From Planctomycetota bacterium (GTDB lineage Bacteria; Planctomycetota; B15-G4; JADJEK01), in NCBI GenBank assembly GCA_044225365.1, contig JBGAIQ010000004.1:96001-160000 (forward strand): a DNA stretch of 64,000 nucleotides. Reading direction: 5' to 3'. How positions within the stretch are numbered: position 1 is the first letter of the stretch; each line of letters begins with the position of its first letter. The position numbers and the translations under genes were made by a program. Positions 30,309-63,625 of the stretch are shown in pieces. The notes beneath the pieces are model-generated. The model was not told the DNA's origin, made no database searches, and was given only the letters and a program-made list of their open reading frames with translations.

Positions 30309-32429
30309 TCAATTCGCCATCACGACGCCGAGGCCCTTCTTCTCGAGGTCGGCCGGGAAGTCGCGGGCCGAGAGGACGACCACCTCGGGAAGGCTGCGCT
30401 CGAACTCCTCGCGGAGCGGCCAGCGCAGTTCGGCGAAGCGCACGAGTAGCACCGGCGGCCGCAGCATGTGGCGCGCGGGGCTGATCGTCTTCTTCGCGGC
30501 ATCGGAGATGTTCATGCGCAGTTCTTCGAAGGCCGGCGTGCCGGGACGCGCCGAGAGCAGGGCTTGCTCGAGATCGGGCTGCAGGTAGTAGAACTCGACG
30601 GTCCGACCATCGGTTCCCGCGAAGCGCGAGTAGAGCGCCCGCTTCAGATTCTGTCGCACCGACTCGCCGACTTCCTCCGCTGCCTTCCGCTCGTGCGGCC
30701 ATCGCGCCATCGCTTCGAGGATCGCGCGGAGATCTCCGATCGGTACCTGTTCGCGCAGAAGGTGCTTCAAGACGTCGGAAACCTGCTGCAATGTGAACTT
30801 CTTCGGATACACCGCCTGCACCAGTTCCGGCCACTTCTGTTCGAGAGCCTTCAGCAGGATGTGCGTTTCCTGCAGTCCGAGGAAGACGTGCAGATTGCGG
30901 CGAATGGCGACGTCGATGCTCATGAGGAACATGCTGAACGCCGACCACTTGATGTCGACGTTCTCGTCGAGAGCGTCCTTCACCTTCTCGTTCGGCACGA
31001 GGCGCACGGTCAGTCGCTTTCCGGGGAGCGGAACGTCCTCGCAGTCGATATCGGCTTGTTCCTTCAACTCCGCCGCCGTCTTCATCGACGCGGTGAACCC
31101 GAGCTGATAACGACCGTGATAGATCGGACCGTCGAAGGCGTAGAGCACGTAGCCGTTCTGCGGGAGGCCCTGCCCGCGCGGAACGACCTCGATCGGCGGG
31201 ACCTGGAATCCGAATTCGTAGGTGAGCCTCTCCCGCATCTTGCGAAGCTCGATCTCGAGCGCGCGGCGCGGCTCGTCGAAGCGGTCCTTGCCGAAGATCG
31301 GAACCAGCGTCGCGTTGAACTCGACGACGAGCGGCGGCGGGATGAAGATGCCCCCGCTCCCACTCGCGCCCTCGCCATCCTTGCCATCCGGCTTCTGTTG
31401 CGGCTTCGGCGCGTTGTAGATGTCCTTCAGCAAGGGCTCGACGATCTTGCCGATGAACGACAACAGGAAGAGCGCGCTGCCGATGATGAGGAACGGCGGG
31501 CCGGGGAATCCGATGTCCTGGCTGAACGCAACGCACGCCGCGAGCAGGAAGAGGATTCCCGCGATGCGAAGCGCGCCCGGATTCTCGATGAACTGACGGA
31601 ACAGCTCCTGACCGAGGTTGCTCGGCTTCTCGTCGGTCGATTGCGCCACGCGCGTGACGGCGATGCCGGCCGCGACGCTCGTGAACAGCGCGGGGAGCTG
31701 CGACACGAGGCCGTCACCGATCGTGAGGATCGAATACGTTTGCGCCGCTTCGCCGGCACTCATCCCCATCTGCATCACGCCGATGATGAGGCCGCCGATG
31801 ATGTTGACGAGCGAGATGATGATGCCCGCGATGGCGTCGCCCTTCACGAACTTCATCGCGCCATCCATCGCGCCGTAGAGCTTGCTCTCCTTCTCGAGTT
31901 CACGGCGACGATTGCGCGCCTGCTCGGGAGTAATGAGGCCTTGCTGCAGGTCGAAGTCGATCGAGCTCTGCTTGCCCGGCATCGCATCGAGCGTAAACCG
32001 CGCACCGACCTCGGCGACGCGCTCGGCGCCCTTCGCGATGACGATGAACTGGATCAGGACGAGCACGACGAACACGACGCCGCCGACGACGAAATTGCCG
32101 CCGACGACCACGTTGCCGAATCCGAAGATGATGTCGCCGGCATTCGCTTCGAGCAGGATGAGGCGAGTCGAGCTGACGTTGAGCGCAAGGCGATAGAGCG
32201 TCGTGAGGAGGAGGATGGTCGGGAAGGCCGGGAACTTCAGGAGGTCGCGGATGTACAGCGCGACCATCAGCACGACGACCGACACGCCGAGGTTGACGGC
32301 GATGAAGTAGTCCATCGTGTGCGGATGGATCCGCACGACCATGAGCCCGACCGACGCGAGCACCGCGATCGCGAGTGCTACATCGCTGAAGCGATCGAGC
32401 TTCTCGAAGAGCTTCCCGAAGAAATTCAT
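30309..32429 (-). CDS. sctV: Type III secretion export gate SctV (LcrD/FlhA family)
   Basis: FPTILLLTTLYRLALNVSSTRLILL, KGAERVAEVGARFTLDAMPGKQ, LYGAMDGAMKFVKGDAIAG, LTIGDGLVSQLP, HLLREQVPIGDLRAILE. Confidence 0.93.
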   Translation of the reverse strand: MNFFGKLFEKLDRFSDVALAIAVLASVGLMVVRIHPHTMDYFIAVNLGVSVVVLMVALYIRDLLKFPAFPTILLLTTLYRLALNVSSTRLILLEANAGDIIFGFGNVVVGGNFVVGGVVFVVLVLIQFIVIAKGAERVAEVGARFTLDAMPGKQSSIDFDLQQGLITPEQARNRRRELEKESKLYGAMDGAMKFVKGDAIAGIIISLVNIIGGLIIGVMQMGMSAGEAAQTYSILTIGDGLVSQLPALFTSVAAGIAVTRVAQSTDEKPSNLGQELFRQFIENPGALRIAGILFLLAACVAFSQDIGFPGPPFLIIGSALFLLSFIGKIVEPLLKDIYNAPKPQQKPDGKDGEGASGSGGIFIPPPLVVEFNATLVPIFGKDRFDEPRRALEIELRKMRERLTYEFGFQVPPIEVVPRGQGLPQNGYVLYAFDGPIYHGRYQLGFTASMKTAAELKEQADIDCEDVPLPGKRLTVRLVPNEKVKDALDENVDIKWSAFSMFLMSIDVAIRRNLHVFLGLQETHILLKALEQKWPELVQAVYPKKFTLQQVSDVLKHLLREQVPIGDLRAILEAMARWPHERKAAEEVGESVRQNLKRALYSRFAGTDGRTVEFYYLQPDLEQALLSARPGTPAFEELRMNISDAAKKTISPARHMLRPPVLLVRFAELRWPLREEFERSLPEVVVLSARDFPADLEKKGLGVVMAN

Positions 32430-32495
32430 CGCTGGGTTCCGTTCGCTGGTGGCTCAGAGGATACGGACAAGAGGGGTGCGACCGCAACGAGCGGA

Positions 32496-32536
32496 GACGC
32501 CCGCGAGGAGCTTTTGATGGCTGCCTCGCGGGCGTC
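32496..32536 (-). terminator. Strong hairpin between the MIIA-domain gene and sctV
   Basis: GACGCCCGCGAGG / CCTCGCGGGCGTC 13-bp stem; no clear U-tract. Confidence 0.5.
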
Positions 32537-32565
32537 CGTTCGATCGCAGGGGGACTGGGATCGGA

Positions 32566-61763: not shown

Positions 61764-61793
61764 GTTCTCGGCGGAAGAACGACAAGTGTTGCA
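61764..61793 (-). promoter_or_regulatory. T3SS upstream motif copy (TGCAAC-N15-GCCGAGAAC)
   Basis: About 80 nt upstream of the needle-like gene. Confidence 0.55.
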
Positions 61794-61856
61794 GTGGAAC
61801 TCGCGACCCTCAAACCTCGACGAGGCTGGCGAGACTCCCCACGAAGTCGCCGTAAG

Positions 61857-62147
61857 TCACTTTTGGTTATTCGGTAAAGCGATCTGTATCGCGACGGAAG
61901 CGGCGAGCTCCATCGCGCGAAGCACGCGCTCCGCTTCCTCGCGACGTTTGTGATTCGTCTCGCTTGCCCGAATCTCCTCGACGGCCCGGCGGACGTCCTC
62001 GACGAATCGCCGAAGCCGCGGCTCGGGCGCGCCGGACCGCAGCTCTCCCACGATCGAGAGCAGCGTCGGGTAGCGCTGTTTCAACAGCCCCTCGATCGCG
62101 TCGGTTCCCAAATCGGCCTCGCGATTTCGATCCATCGGCTCGTTCAT
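61857..62147 (-). CDS. Small helical protein in the YscE position
   Basis: 96 aa from MNEPMDR; ATGA overlap with the upstream lipoprotein gene. Confidence 0.6.
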   Translation of the reverse strand: MNEPMDRNREADLGTDAIEGLLKQRYPTLLSIVGELRSGAPEPRLRRFVEDVRRAVEEIRASETNHKRREEAERVLRAMELAASVAIQIALPNNQK

Positions 62148-63625
62148 CTCGTGCCTTCCTTCGGATTCGATATGACTTCGTCGCGGCGGACGCGCAAGCG
62201 ATGCAGGCGTTCGTCGGCGGCGCTCTCCGCCGCGGGCGGAAGCTCGACCGCGAGCTCCTCGAGCGCGAGCAGCCACTGTTCGCAAGCGACTCGATTGCGC
62301 TCGAACTCTCGTTTCGCCGCGGCGTCCTTTCCCGCGAACGGCGCATAGAAGCGCAATGTCGCGAGGTCGTAGCCGACGCGCACGGCGATGAGATCGAACA
62401 ACAGCCCGGGATCCTGCGCGATGCGCTTTCCCGGCGTGCCGATGAACTCCGCCGTCAAATTCTCGACCGATTCATAGAGGGAGCGTTTCGTGGCGATCTC
62501 GGTCGCGACGTCGTTCAGTTCGACGAAGCGCGAGACGCGGAACTCGGCGTAACCGCAGATCGCCGAGAAACACGCAAAACGCACGCGGGGGTCGTTTCGG
62601 ACCATCGGACCGTTGTTCTCGATCATCGAGCGAGCGATGTCGTAGGCCGCGAGGAAGGAGTCGTCGGTGCGCGTCGGCAGCTCCGTCGCGAGGCGGAGCT
62701 GGACCTTCAAGAGTTCGAGCTTCGCTTCGAAGCAGTTGGGATCGAGCTTGCCGAGGAGATCGTCGAGGTTCTTCTTGTATTGCGCGAGGAGCACGGGCGT
62801 CACCGGCTGCTTCTCGAAATCGAACCGCGCGAGATCGAACGCGAGCGTGCCGAGTCGGTGGCGCGCCTTCAGTTTGCCGATCACGTCGACGCCCTGCGCA
62901 GCGATCGATGCGTCGTTCGAGTGCCCTCCGCCGCCTGCGGCGGTGACCGCGTCGATCGGTACCGCGGCCTTGTTCCCGAGGTCGAACGCGAGATAACGGT
63001 CGATCACGCGCAGGCGCTCCAGCATCTCGAGCGGCGGCGTCAGGAGGTTCGAGTAGAAATCGTCCTGGGGAGGCAGGGGATCGTCCATCCGGCCGCCGTG
63101 TTCGAGCCAGCAAATCGCACGCTGTGCGTCCTCGAGGTCCTTCTTGGCCTGAGCGAGCGCCTCGATGGTCATGTCCGACTGACGTCGCGTGAGGTGGAGT
63201 TCCGCGCGCAGCAGGAATGCGGGCGCAAAACCCTTGTCCTCGGCCGCAGCGGCGGTCGCGAGTCGCAGCGCTTCCTCGACACCGTCGGCCCCGTTCGCTT
63301 CGAGCACGAGCTTGCCGAGCACCGTCTTGGACAACCCGTTCCGCCCGCCGCCCTGCGCATCCGCCTGCCGCGCCTTCTCGATCGCGGCCTGCATGTGCGA
63401 GGTGAACTCAGGGCCGCGCTGGACGAGCGCGTGAGCACGCCCCCACTGCTCGAGGCAGTCCTGGATCAGCGTCTCGACTTCCTTGCTCGGACGATCGACG
63501 GGGGGCGGCGGCGGCACGACGGGCTGCGGACAGCCCACGGCGAGAAGCAGCACGAAACTGGGAACGATGAGATCGCACAGTCGGCGAGCCCAGCTTCGGT
63601 GAGTCGGGTCGTACCTCCGGCGCAT
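62144..63625 (-). CDS. Lipoprotein with helical/TPR-like repeats heading the T3SS operon
   Basis: Lipobox AVGC followed by a poly-Pro linker; GGAGAGG RBS. Confidence 0.7.
   Translation of the reverse strand: MRRRYDPTHRSWARRLCDLIVPSFVLLLAVGCPQPVVPPPPPVDRPSKEVETLIQDCLEQWGRAHALVQRGPEFTSHMQAAIEKARQADAQGGGRNGLSKTVLGKLVLEANGADGVEEALRLATAAAAEDKGFAPAFLLRAELHLTRRQSDMTIEALAQAKKDLEDAQRAICWLEHGGRMDDPLPPQDDFYSNLLTPPLEMLERLRVIDRYLAFDLGNKAAVPIDAVTAAGGGGHSNDASIAAQGVDVIGKLKARHRLGTLAFDLARFDFEKQPVTPVLLAQYKKNLDDLLGKLDPNCFEAKLELLKVQLRLATELPTRTDDSFLAAYDIARSMIENNGPMVRNDPRVRFACFSAICGYAEFRVSRFVELNDVATEIATKRSLYESVENLTAEFIGTPGKRIAQDPGLLFDLIAVRVGYDLATLRFYAPFAGKDAAAKREFERNRVACEQWLLALEELAVELPPAAESAADERLHRLRVRRDEVISNPKEGTR

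Follow-up and report, generated by a model that had tools for sequence, protein, structure and literature searches.

Organization of the type III secretion gene cluster

The 64,000-nucleotide stretch of planctomycete DNA analyzed here (the window) harbors a T3SS (type III secretion system) gene cluster at positions 30309-63625, with all the T3SS genes encoded on the minus strand (Table 1). Genes were called with a codon model trained on 827 long open reading frames (ORFs) of the host genome, combined with Pfam and NCBIfam. The homologues of sctV, U, R, S, T, Q, N, L and J reported in an initial annotation of the window were borne out by both family collections. The preference among NCBIfam models was mixed, SctV, R, N, Q and J leaning toward injectisome models and SctU, T, S and L toward flagellar models, and most of the equivalog scores of the core proteins were under the cut-off. 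The P-loop of SctN was confirmed as AAAGVGKST, which fits the usual pattern [AG]xxxxGK[ST]. SctJ, previously described as a lipoprotein rather than a FliF, was found to contain the lipobox LATAC and a single C-terminal membrane helix, and its model scores agree with that description. A family hidden Markov model (HMM) built from SctJ of the window clade (see below) gave E-values of 1e-15 to 1e-21 for SctJ reference proteins, compared with about 1e-10 for FliF loci. Overlaps of 4 bases were observed at several gene junctions; together with the NPTH motif of SctU and the P-loop, they appear to be signs of an intact operon. The codon-usage scores of the core T3SS genes were as high as those of host genes.

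Two sister systems, in the genomes G354 and G380, were compared with that of the host genome of the window (G000). Among the genes labeled O-, P-, I- and F-like in the initial annotation, F and I have gained some homology support, whereas O and P stand by gene order only. The protein at the ruler position showed no Pfam or NCBIfam match, and a profile search of the Protein Data Bank (PDB) with its family returned nothing useful; its last 90 residues recur in conserved form in both sister genomes (G380, E 4.6e-10; G354, E 4.3e-6). The protein at the sctK position has a homolog at the same position in G354 (E 9e-11), with no family, PDB (profile) or cross-family HMM match. The FliO-like gene, the 14.6-kb insert, the IS200-like ORF, the SycD/CdsG-like TPR chaperone, the TPR-like lipoprotein and the DUF1521/MIIA protein had been overlooked in the initial annotation.

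Table 1. Features of the T3SS gene cluster, with window positions and the evidence for each assignment (aa, amino acids).
Feature	Position	Strand	Evidence
sctV (export gate)	30309-32429	-	PF00771 FHIPEP 597.7 bits; hrcV model 570 vs FlhA 518.1
DUF1521/MIIA protein, 416 aa, between sctU and sctV	32566-33816	-	PF07481 31.9 bits (cut-off 23.6)
sctU	33933-35075	-	PF01312 350.4 bits; flhB model 329.7 vs SctU 304.4; NPTH at residue 271
Non-T3SS insert, 14.6 kb, between sctT and sctU	35187-49774	mostly -, one plus-strand ORF	Pfam
sctT	49802-50587	-	PF01311 178.1 bits; fliR model 145.7 vs SctT 115.2
sctS	50610-50879	-	PF01313 92.7 bits; fliQ model 88.4 vs SctS 64.5
sctR	50892-51662	-	PF00813 199.1 bits; NF009438 EscR/YscR 207.3 bits (above cut-off 179)
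FliO-like single-pass membrane protein, 162 aa, between sctQ and sctR	51659-52147	-	PF04347 43.7 bits (cut-off 22)
sctQ, 387 aa	52144-53307	-	FliMN_C 33.7 bits; SctQ model 35.9 vs FliN 24.4
302-aa protein, sctP/fliK ruler position	53407-54315	-	Gene order
Charged coiled-coil protein, 160 aa, sctO/fliJ position	54312-54794	-	Position and composition only
sctN ATPase	54791-56146	-	Pfam 256.3 bits; TIGR01026 459.2 (cut-off 379.5); SctN model 482.1 vs best FliI model 458.5
IS200/Y1-transposase-like ORF, 168 aa, between sctL and sctN, same orientation	56371-56877	-	PF01797 27.9 bits
sctL/FliH stator	57025-57735	-	PF02108 FliH 57.9 bits; FliH model 44.3 vs SctL 36.8
Helical protein, 297 aa, sctK position	57783-58676	-	Gene order
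sctJ inner-membrane ring lipoprotein, 349 aa	58719-59768	-	PF01514 YscJ_FliF 50.3 bits; TIGR02544 82.8 vs FliF 25.9
Rod-like (SctI-like) protein, 180 aa	59860-60402	-	Homologs, HMM
Small protein, 124 aa	60434-60808	-	phmmer E 3.8e-13 to G354 gene at same position; no family match
TPR chaperone, 146 aa, SycD/LcrH-, SctY-, CdsG-like	60855-61295	-	TIGR02552, TPR_2
Needle-like (SctF-like) protein, 113 aa	61343-61684	-	Homologs, family profile; Gly-rich middle, conserved C-terminal helix
Small helical protein, 96 aa, yscE position	61857-62147	-	Position only
TPR-like helical lipoprotein, 493 aa, at ysc-type sctD position	62144-63625	-	Lipobox LLAVGC; 4-base overlap with next gene

A second system beside the host flagellum

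The host genome (6.53 Mb in 103 contigs, 94% complete) contains two FHIPEP genes and two FliI/SctN ATPases above cut-off. Its flagellar set is separate from the T3SS cluster, the flagellar FHIPEP gene (780 bits) and FliI (554 bits) being located on contig C95 beside rod genes; this FlhA and FliI are 36% and 43% identical, respectively, to their window counterparts. The cluster has no rod, hook, FliF, FliG or Mot genes, and Flg_bb_rod had no match on the T3SS contig, all five matches in the genome falling on contigs C70 and C95. The earlier view of a non-flagellar system in a probable planctomycete was sustained, this system being the second of its kind in the genome beside the flagellar set. 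As to the host, G380 belongs to the same phylum, its SctV lies at zero branch length from a protein named 'Planctomycetota bacterium', and a PSCyt1/PSCyt2/PSD1 gene with its DUF1501 partner is present 10 kb past the window. The marker domain PF07596 (DUF1559) gave no signal in the host genome, nor in the control, and so has no bearing on the assignment.

Search for secretin, SctD, SctW and translocon

The injectisome model of T3SSscan/TXSScan requires nine genes (sctC, J, N, Q, R, S, T, U and V), and the secretin SctC, mandatory there, is forbidden in the flagellum model (PMC4793230). All eight of the non-secretin mandatory genes are present in the window, in a locus split by the 14.6-kb insert, and the best SctC score in the host genome is 111 bits against a cut-off of 238. 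Profile searches were made in parallel in the three clade genomes (G000, G354 and G380) and in three planctomycete genomes with classical-type clusters (G295, G364 and G268). The SctC model TIGR02516 gave 111, 106 and 110 bits in the former and 428, 285 and 262 bits (384 summed for G268) in the latter. The SctD model TIGR02500 (cut-off 86 bits) gave 24, 24 and 28 bits in the clade genomes, was above cut-off in G295 and G268, and reached 53 bits in G364, where the matching gene adjoins the secretin and the SctC match lies 5 kb from sctN. The scores of the clade genomes are at the level of generic secretins or FHA domains. The search for SctW (TIGR02568), proposed as a check with the initial annotation, returned no match at E<=1 anywhere in the host genome, and no SctC, SctD or SctW was detected at family cut-off in the host genome, G354 or G380. 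Reference SctC, D, W, F, K and B proteins used as tblastn queries found nothing in the G354 and G380 loci and flagged G268, G364 and G295. The T3SS contigs of G000, G354 and G380 carry no secretin gene. Hence, the reported lack of a secretin and of SctD holds genome-wide at the level of profile searches that were positive in the three classical-type genomes. Absence is unprovable from an incomplete genome, and fast-evolving proteins such as translocators could escape detection.

FliO-like protein and the lipoprotein at the sctD position

The FliO-like protein scored 54.5 bits with TIGR03500, just under the cut-off of 55.25. The gene is kept at the same position in G354 (E 1.9e-14), and G380 contains a 136-aa gene there. 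Outside the clade, an HMM of the three clade FliO copies matched only loci flagged as flagellar and no classical-type locus. The injectisome references were those of Aeromonas salmonicida pS68-2, Nitratidesulfovibrio vulgaris pDVUL01, Shigella pSd1, Pantoea stewartii pDSJ10 and the Ralstonia megaplasmid; in the five annotated reference loci, sctQ and sctR are adjacent or overlapping. The presence of FliO in non-flagellar T3SS has already been published for both Myxococcus xanthus systems and for several Pseudomonadota orders (PMC12403147), and the main text of that paper on FliO does not mention Planctomycetes.

No Pfam or NCBIfam family matched the 493-aa lipoprotein. Its AlphaFold2 (AF2) model was all-helical at low-to-moderate confidence (predicted local distance difference test, pLDDT, 68.5), and the best Foldseek rows were TPR/Sel1 solenoids at E 2e-3 to 1e-2, none being at or below 1e-3. 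Only three homologs (58-62% identity) were found among 5.8 billion proteins. Both sister genomes encode a helical lipoprotein in the corresponding place (429 aa in G380, 845 aa in G354), and these two match each other at E 4e-9; the pairwise BLASTP match between the window lipoprotein and its G380 counterpart was not significant (E 0.12). The topology of the lipoprotein is not SctD-like, and no protein of the cluster has the topology of SctD, i.e., an N-terminal domain, one transmembrane helix and a periplasmic domain.

Needle-like, rod-like and chaperone genes

The needle-like protein of the window showed no Pfam or NCBIfam match, and its pairwise BLASTP match to N. vulgaris SctF was not significant (E 2.2). 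Homologs are present at the same position in G380 (E 9.6e-15) and G354 (E 1.5e-11). A profile of the three proteins retrieved 534 representatives (50% clustering) at E<=1e-3 among 1.84 billion sequences; PF09392 T3SS_needle_F was matched by 5 of the best 150 of these relatives (best E 7.5e-4), and other families by at most two members each. The sole PDB sequence at E<=1 was chain F of 7y6c, a T3SS needle/co-chaperone entry, which aligned to the C-terminal helix at E 0.04 (0.074 with the three-sequence profile). In G364 (1e-4) and G268 (0.067), the needle-family HMM also picked up small ORFs that occupy the needle position.

The 146-aa TPR protein matched TIGR02552 at E 6.4e-8 (32.4 bits, under the cut-off of 104.8), the SctY and CdsG models at 1e-3 and 1.9e-3 (both below cut-off) and TPR_2 at 29.1 bits. 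In the predicted structure of the pair, the TPR groove is occupied by residues 85-113 of the needle-like protein, its C-terminal helix. The complex scored 0.75 against 0.13 for the best of three controls, with runs agreeing on at least 87% of contacts and a partner pLDDT of at least 55; 58 of 80 solved complexes attained the score mark, as did 2 of 110 mismatched pairs, and because needle-chaperone complexes have already been solved, the score indicates likeness to them and is not proof of binding.

The rod-like protein has homologs at the same position in G354 (E 2.1e-9) and G380 (E 3.1e-9). Its family HMM recognized the ORF that directly precedes sctJ in G268 (E 0.006), as well as the annotated Ralstonia HrpB2/SctI (E 0.012), and the protein itself showed a weak match to the NCBIfam HrpB2 model, C-terminus on C-terminus, at E 0.52. 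A PDB search with the rod-family profile returned only syntaxin (E about 0.5), and as single-sequence PDB queries the needle-like, rod-like and DUF1521 proteins gave chance-level matches only. The 96-aa protein at the yscE position had no family match and no cross-family HMM match. Supported, though more weakly than the core, is the presence in the cluster of genes for a needle-like subunit, for a TPR chaperone that is predicted to bind the C-terminal helix of this subunit, and for a rod-like protein.

The needle-like family is large yet nearly invisible to Pfam, 145 of the best 150 relatives having no PF09392 match. In G180 and G198, which carry another type of planctomycete T3SS, the ORF directly after sctV (L111:3580-4377 and L112:3570-4433) matched the needle-family HMM at E 1e-5 and 2e-3. 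It may be common for larger proteins encoded beside sctV to end in a needle-like module.

DUF1521/MIIA protein

The sister genomes G354 and G380 also encode a DUF1521 protein directly after sctU and before sctV. The window protein belongs to the MIIA/DUF1521 family by its above cut-off PF07481 score and its GDPH motif, and 11 homologs were found among 5.8 billion proteins. GDPH occupies residues 70-73; in a 13-row alignment, the G is invariant and D, P and H are each conserved in at least 90% of the rows. The protein retains the motif WGDPH...DGD and a C-terminal helix like that of the needle-like protein, and it was matched by the needle-family HMM at E 5e-10. The AF2 model (pLDDT 66.7) consisted of a beta domain at residues 34-168 (about 90), a disordered Gly/Pro stretch and a C-terminal helical hairpin at residues 339-415; Foldseek returned no row at E<=1e-3 for it.

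The T3SS-linked MIIA proteins NopE1 and NopE2 (Bradyrhizobium) and VIC_001052 (Vibrio coralliilyticus) undergo Ca2+-induced cleavage after the Asp of GDPH, and VIC_001052 is likewise encoded inside a T3SS cluster (PMC6506597). The window protein shares the DUF1521 domain and the GDPH motif with them. It differs in being a single MIIA domain fused to a hairpin that matches the needle-like protein of its own cluster, and in its fixed place between sctU and sctV in all three genomes. This would be a new setting for metal-induced autocleavage (putative here), in a fixed, machine-encoded part and not in a host-targeted effector.

A phmmer alignment (E 0.018) paired the GDPH region of the beta domain with the GDPH sites that recur in the FCGBP vWD domains, and D-assemblies of MUC2/VWF had the top Foldseek probability (0.75) for this domain at E about 0.04. 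These matches hint that the self-cleaving vWD fold may have a bacterial relative in MIIA.

Distribution and genomic arrangement of related systems

In 40 relatives of the host (11 of the same family, the rest of the same order), the best SctV match showed 36% identity and 346.8 bits; because this equals the level of the genome's own FlhA (36%, 306.3 bits), no SctV ortholog was found in these 40. Among 400 other genomes of the phylum, nine had an SctV match at E<=1e-110 (37-42% identity). In the trees, two of them (G354 and G380) fell in the window clade, three (G268, G364 and G295) with classical families, two (G180 and G198) on the injectisome side near Myxococcota-type sequences and two (G370 and G406) with flagella. 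The system is rare, being present in 2 of the 400 sampled genomes. Among 5.8 billion proteins, the nearest relatives of SctV were 80% and 74% identical and all others at most 48%; the named relatives of the clade are proteins of Planctomycetota and Phycisphaerales metagenome-assembled genomes (MAGs). A metagenome scan with SctN gave 80 loci, the best 48% identical, most of them flagellar and none with the accessory genes of the clade, and a genome-contig scan with SctV gave 74 loci that were mostly flagellar.

The genomes G000, G354 and G380 belong to different families of the phylum (f1, f74 and f86), and the gene set is kept among them at 37-55% identity. The gene order in G354 and G380 is lipoprotein, small gene, F, TPR, (124), I, J, K, L, N, O, P ... 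Q, FliO, R, S, T, U, DUF1521 ... V, so that the accessory genes of the window are kept in the same relative order; the matches to the 124-aa and sctK-position proteins are those in G354. In G380, sctR reads as two ORFs of 63 and 147 aa (L120:14107-14708), suggesting a frameshift or an assembly error. Non-flagellar T3SS have been catalogued in Chlamydiae, Proteobacteria and Verrucomicrobia (PMC3459982). No account of a T3SS in planctomycetes turned up in literature searches directed at the topic; examples may be listed in the supplements of PMC3459982 and in Dataset S2 of PMC12403147.

Phylogenetic analysis

SctV trees of 58 and then 102 rows were inferred under LG+G4 with a 'quick' search, and SctN was analyzed in trees with and without an F1-ATPase outgroup. 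The window SctV was placed in a 22-row clade with supports of 99 and 98 in the smaller and larger tree, respectively; its members include sequences with Planctomycetota or Phycisphaerales names as well as G354 and G380. In both trees, a branch with support 100 separated this clade from the flagellar clan, which numbers 36 sequences in the larger tree. Nesting of SctV inside the FlhA clade, which the initial annotation had named as counter-evidence to its proposal of a separate, deep-branching lineage, was thus not observed, and the lineage stood outside the flagellar and known injectisome clades. In the 102-row tree, the window clade was sister (support 88) to a 40-row clade comprising Ysc, SPI-1, Hrp1, Hrp2, Desulfo, Mesorhizobium, three planctomycete classical-type and Myxococcota/'Deltaproteobacteria'-type sequences. 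SctN of the window, G354 and G380 likewise formed a clade with support 100, both with and without the outgroup; without it, the clade was a weakly supported sister (77) of the classical families, and uniting the two was not rejected by the approximately unbiased (AU) test (p 0.32). On these trees, the window clade appears distinct and not nested in any sampled flagellar or named injectisome family. On the SctV tree, the lineage would sit between flagellar export systems and secretin-bearing injectisomes.

Sampling of Myxococcota covered 151 genomes, 83 of which had an SctV match, and 44 of the sequences were included in the tree. None of the 44 joined the window clade; none was matched by name to the published Myxo loci. 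Two Myxococcota loci in the flagellar SctV clan are truly flagellar. In four of four genomes examined, the injectisome-side SctV of Myxococcota was solitary within 20 kb on either side (the contig of G479 being shorter). Four Myxococcota genomes (G516, G570, G431 and G490; loci L261, L265, L273 and L274) contain a very divergent FHIPEP-like gene that forms its own long-branch clan in the SctV tree; these genes are orphans, and the two loci examined had no other T3SS gene within 20 kb.

Comparison with known systems

The window system shares with classical injectisomes (Ysc, Desulfovibrionales, SPI-1, Hrp1 and Hrp2) the nine-gene core minus sctC, the SctJ lipoprotein and a needle-chaperone-like TPR protein. 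Its arrangement parallels the ysc/Desulfo order (D)-E-F-G-H-I-J-K-L followed by N-O-P-Q-R-S-T-U, as in the annotated N. vulgaris locus. In the SctV trees, it lies on the same side of the flagellar split, and classical SctV proteins are 33-39% identical to that of the window over most of the length. Unlike classical injectisomes, it has no detectable SctC, SctD, SctW or translocon, and it includes a FliO-like gene between sctQ and sctR, a TPR-like lipoprotein at the sctD position and an MIIA/needle hybrid between sctU and sctV. With the flagellar export apparatus (FlhA/FlhB/FliOPQR/FliHIJ), it has the FliO-like gene in common, and SctU, T and S score slightly better on flagellar models; it differs from the flagellum in that its cluster lacks genes for rod, hook, FliF, FliG and Mot and its SctV falls outside the flagellar clade.

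The Myxo type of non-flagellar T3SS is reported to lack the secretin and the needle subunit SctF, and also the tip and translocon (Abby and Rocha, PMC3459982), and the M. xanthus system has been called a 'needleless T3SS*' (PMC12075869). Common to this type and the window system are the lack of a secretin, tip and translocon, the presence of FliO, deep branching and, probably, a free-living host with no obvious eukaryotic partner. The window system differs in having needle-like and rod-like genes with a chaperone, in its phylum and in an SctV clade free of Myxococcota. The window system combines flagellar traits (the FliO-like gene and flagellar-leaning gate proteins), injectisome traits (the SctJ lipoprotein, needle-like and rod-like proteins, the TPR chaperone and a ysc-like order) and traits of its own (the TPR-like lipoprotein and the MIIA/needle hybrid protein).

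Nature of the system and alternative explanations

It is likely, with a probability of roughly 0.6, that the cluster encodes an intact second T3SS, distinct from the flagellum, of a lineage so far found only in Planctomycetota, including Phycisphaerales-labelled MAGs. As such, it is a new family-level variant of the non-flagellar T3SS. To judge from its gene content, it would work most like an injectisome basal body with needle parts, minus the secretin, SctD and SctW.

Several observations weigh against this reading. Flagellar NCBIfam models outscore injectisome ones for four of the five proteins of the export gate (SctU, T, S and the FliO-like protein), and the O-, P-, K- and E-like labels follow gene order only. 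The needle call is weak by sequence (Pfam and NCBIfam silent, 5 of 150 relatives with PF09392, PDB match at E 0.04-0.07), and the complex score is subject to the limit given above. The system was found in 0 of 40 relatives of the same order, and its operon is broken by the IS200-like ORF and the 14.6-kb insert. Any of 13 other secretin genes of the 94% complete host genome could act in trans. In the phylogeny, the branch to the injectisome side was supported by only 88, the trees came from 'quick' searches with support values of a single kind (SH-aLRT, the Shimodaira-Hasegawa-like approximate likelihood ratio test), the branches of the clade in SctN are long, and in the SctN tree with the F1-ATPase outgroup, the clade formed a polytomy with FliI groups of flagella and was set apart from the classical families. 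In view of the long branches and short searches, the phylogenetic claim is therefore limited to a distinct clade near the flagellar/injectisome split.

The missing parts might be encoded elsewhere or be too divergent for detection, in which case the system would be a complete injectisome with a secretin acting in trans, the TPR-like lipoprotein serving as its pilotin or dock and another protein replacing SctD. In type IV pili, TPR lipoproteins play the part of secretin pilotins, and a needle-like subunit points to something that it has to cross. The 13 Secretin-domain genes offer candidates, and Abby and Rocha concluded that secretins were recruited at least three times (PMC3459982). This explanation is nevertheless judged unlikely: none of these genes lies on a T3SS contig of the three clade genomes, the SctC and SctD models that recognized three classical-type planctomycete systems stayed at generic level in all three, and no cluster protein has the SctD topology. 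A decaying, non-working remnant of an injectisome that had lost sctC, sctD, sctW and the translocon would account for the IS200-like ORF in the operon, the 14.6 kb of foreign genes between sctT and sctU, the lack of the system in the 40 relatives and the split sctR of G380. It is distinctly improbable given the nine full-length core genes with intact NPTH and P-loop, the host-like codon-usage scores, and the recurrence of the same reduced gene set with its accessory genes in three genomes of different families at 37-55% identity.

The other two alternatives concern ancestry. Membership in the secretin-less 'Myxo' family, the 'needleless T3SS*' type of M. xanthus and one of the readings of the initial annotation, would agree with the shared lack of secretin, tip and translocon (PMC3459982), with the FliO gene of both M. 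xanthus systems (PMC12403147) and with the Myxococcota MAGs that gave the best SctV genome-contig matches (38% identity). The absence of a secretin fits this type. The needle-like and rod-like genes and the needle-type chaperone do not, the Myxo type being reported without SctF (PMC3459982), nor does the absence from the clade of all 44 Myxococcota SctV sequences, among which the published Myxo loci were not identified by name; the Myxo-like reading is hence unsupported and judged improbable. The least probable alternative of all has the system evolving from the flagellum as a second export device, on a line separate from that of injectisomes. The FliO-like gene, the model preferences of SctU, T and S and the placement of SctN among flagellar FliI groups with the F1 outgroup are in its favor; it is opposed by the separation of SctV from all 36 flagellar-clan sequences at support 100, by an SctJ in place of FliF together with the preference of the clade SctJ HMM for injectisome SctJ, by the ysc-type gene order as in N. 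vulgaris and by the AU test, which did not reject the clade and the classical families as one group (p 0.32).

Proposed mechanism and significance

If the cluster is an intact second T3SS of a separate lineage, the SctN-powered gate would export the rod-like and needle-like subunits, which could polymerize above the SctRST channel. The DUF1521/MIIA protein would be a late substrate, its needle-like C-terminal hairpin allowing it to join or cap the filament; on meeting micromolar Ca2+ outside the cytoplasm, it could cut itself after the Asp of GDPH, as NopE1/2 and VIC_001052 do. The TPR-like lipoprotein at the sctD position may anchor or guide the structure in the periplasm, and the filament would either stop there or cross the outer membrane via an unrelated conduit. 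A tentative extension, which we regard as possible though doubtful, is that the clade represents a surviving intermediate between flagellum and injectisome, one that forms a needle and retains FliO and that split off before the secretin, SctD, the gatekeeper and the translocon were recruited. A calcium-triggered protein that cleaves itself would cap the needle-like filament, which would operate in the large planctomycete periplasm or via a non-secretin route through the outer membrane.

If this were true, the needle would have preceded the outer-membrane channel, and the inference of Abby and Rocha that the first non-flagellar T3SS had SctF would become testable in a living organism. The parts that define a contact-dependent injector are missing, and the clade therefore offers a concrete system for asking what a secretin-less T3SS does. 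It bears on the order in which injectisome parts were acquired and may show such machines as they were before becoming injection devices.

Insertions and neighboring genes

The 14.6-kb insert contains a 2463-aa poly-HAMP hybrid kinase, a REC-HK-REC kinase, amidinotransferase-like and GDSL proteins, a plus-strand ORF, a TetR protein and an AHSA1/YCII protein. Its first four genes trail sctT with gaps of 8-38 bases. It is considered lineage-specific because R, S, T and U are contiguous in G354 and G380, and none of its genes has a homolog near the T3SS clusters of these genomes; for the same reason, the insert kinases were dropped as candidates for dedicated T3SS regulators. The poly-HAMP histidine kinase (42383-49774, minus strand) comprises 14-15 tandem HAMP, GAF, HisKA/HATPase and three receiver domains; it begins 27 bases past sctT, and the REC-HK-REC kinase follows 38 bases further on. 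The poly-HAMP kinase may be co-transcribed with T3SS genes. The IS200-like ORF is an insertion and lies outside the T3SS machine proper, the spacing between sctL and sctN being 878 bases in the window compared with 22 in G354 and 265 in G380.

Two genes upstream of the lipoprotein and beyond the window (447 and 804 aa) were excluded from the cluster as they are not conserved in G354 and G380. Beside the T3SS cluster of G354 (contig C34; L124, L224), three membrane-anchored SGNH/GDSL-like proteins of 449, 504 and 532 aa are encoded, their motif having been read by eye; phmmer showed no similarity between them and the GDSL protein of the window insert (37886-39799). The region is flanked by two large sigma-70 fusion proteins, one of 1052 aa at window positions 3331-6489 (plus strand) and one of 876 aa at L119:16598-19228 (plus strand), both of which combine N-terminal sigma-70 regions 2 and 4 with long C-terminal CarboxypepD_reg/Ig-like repeats.

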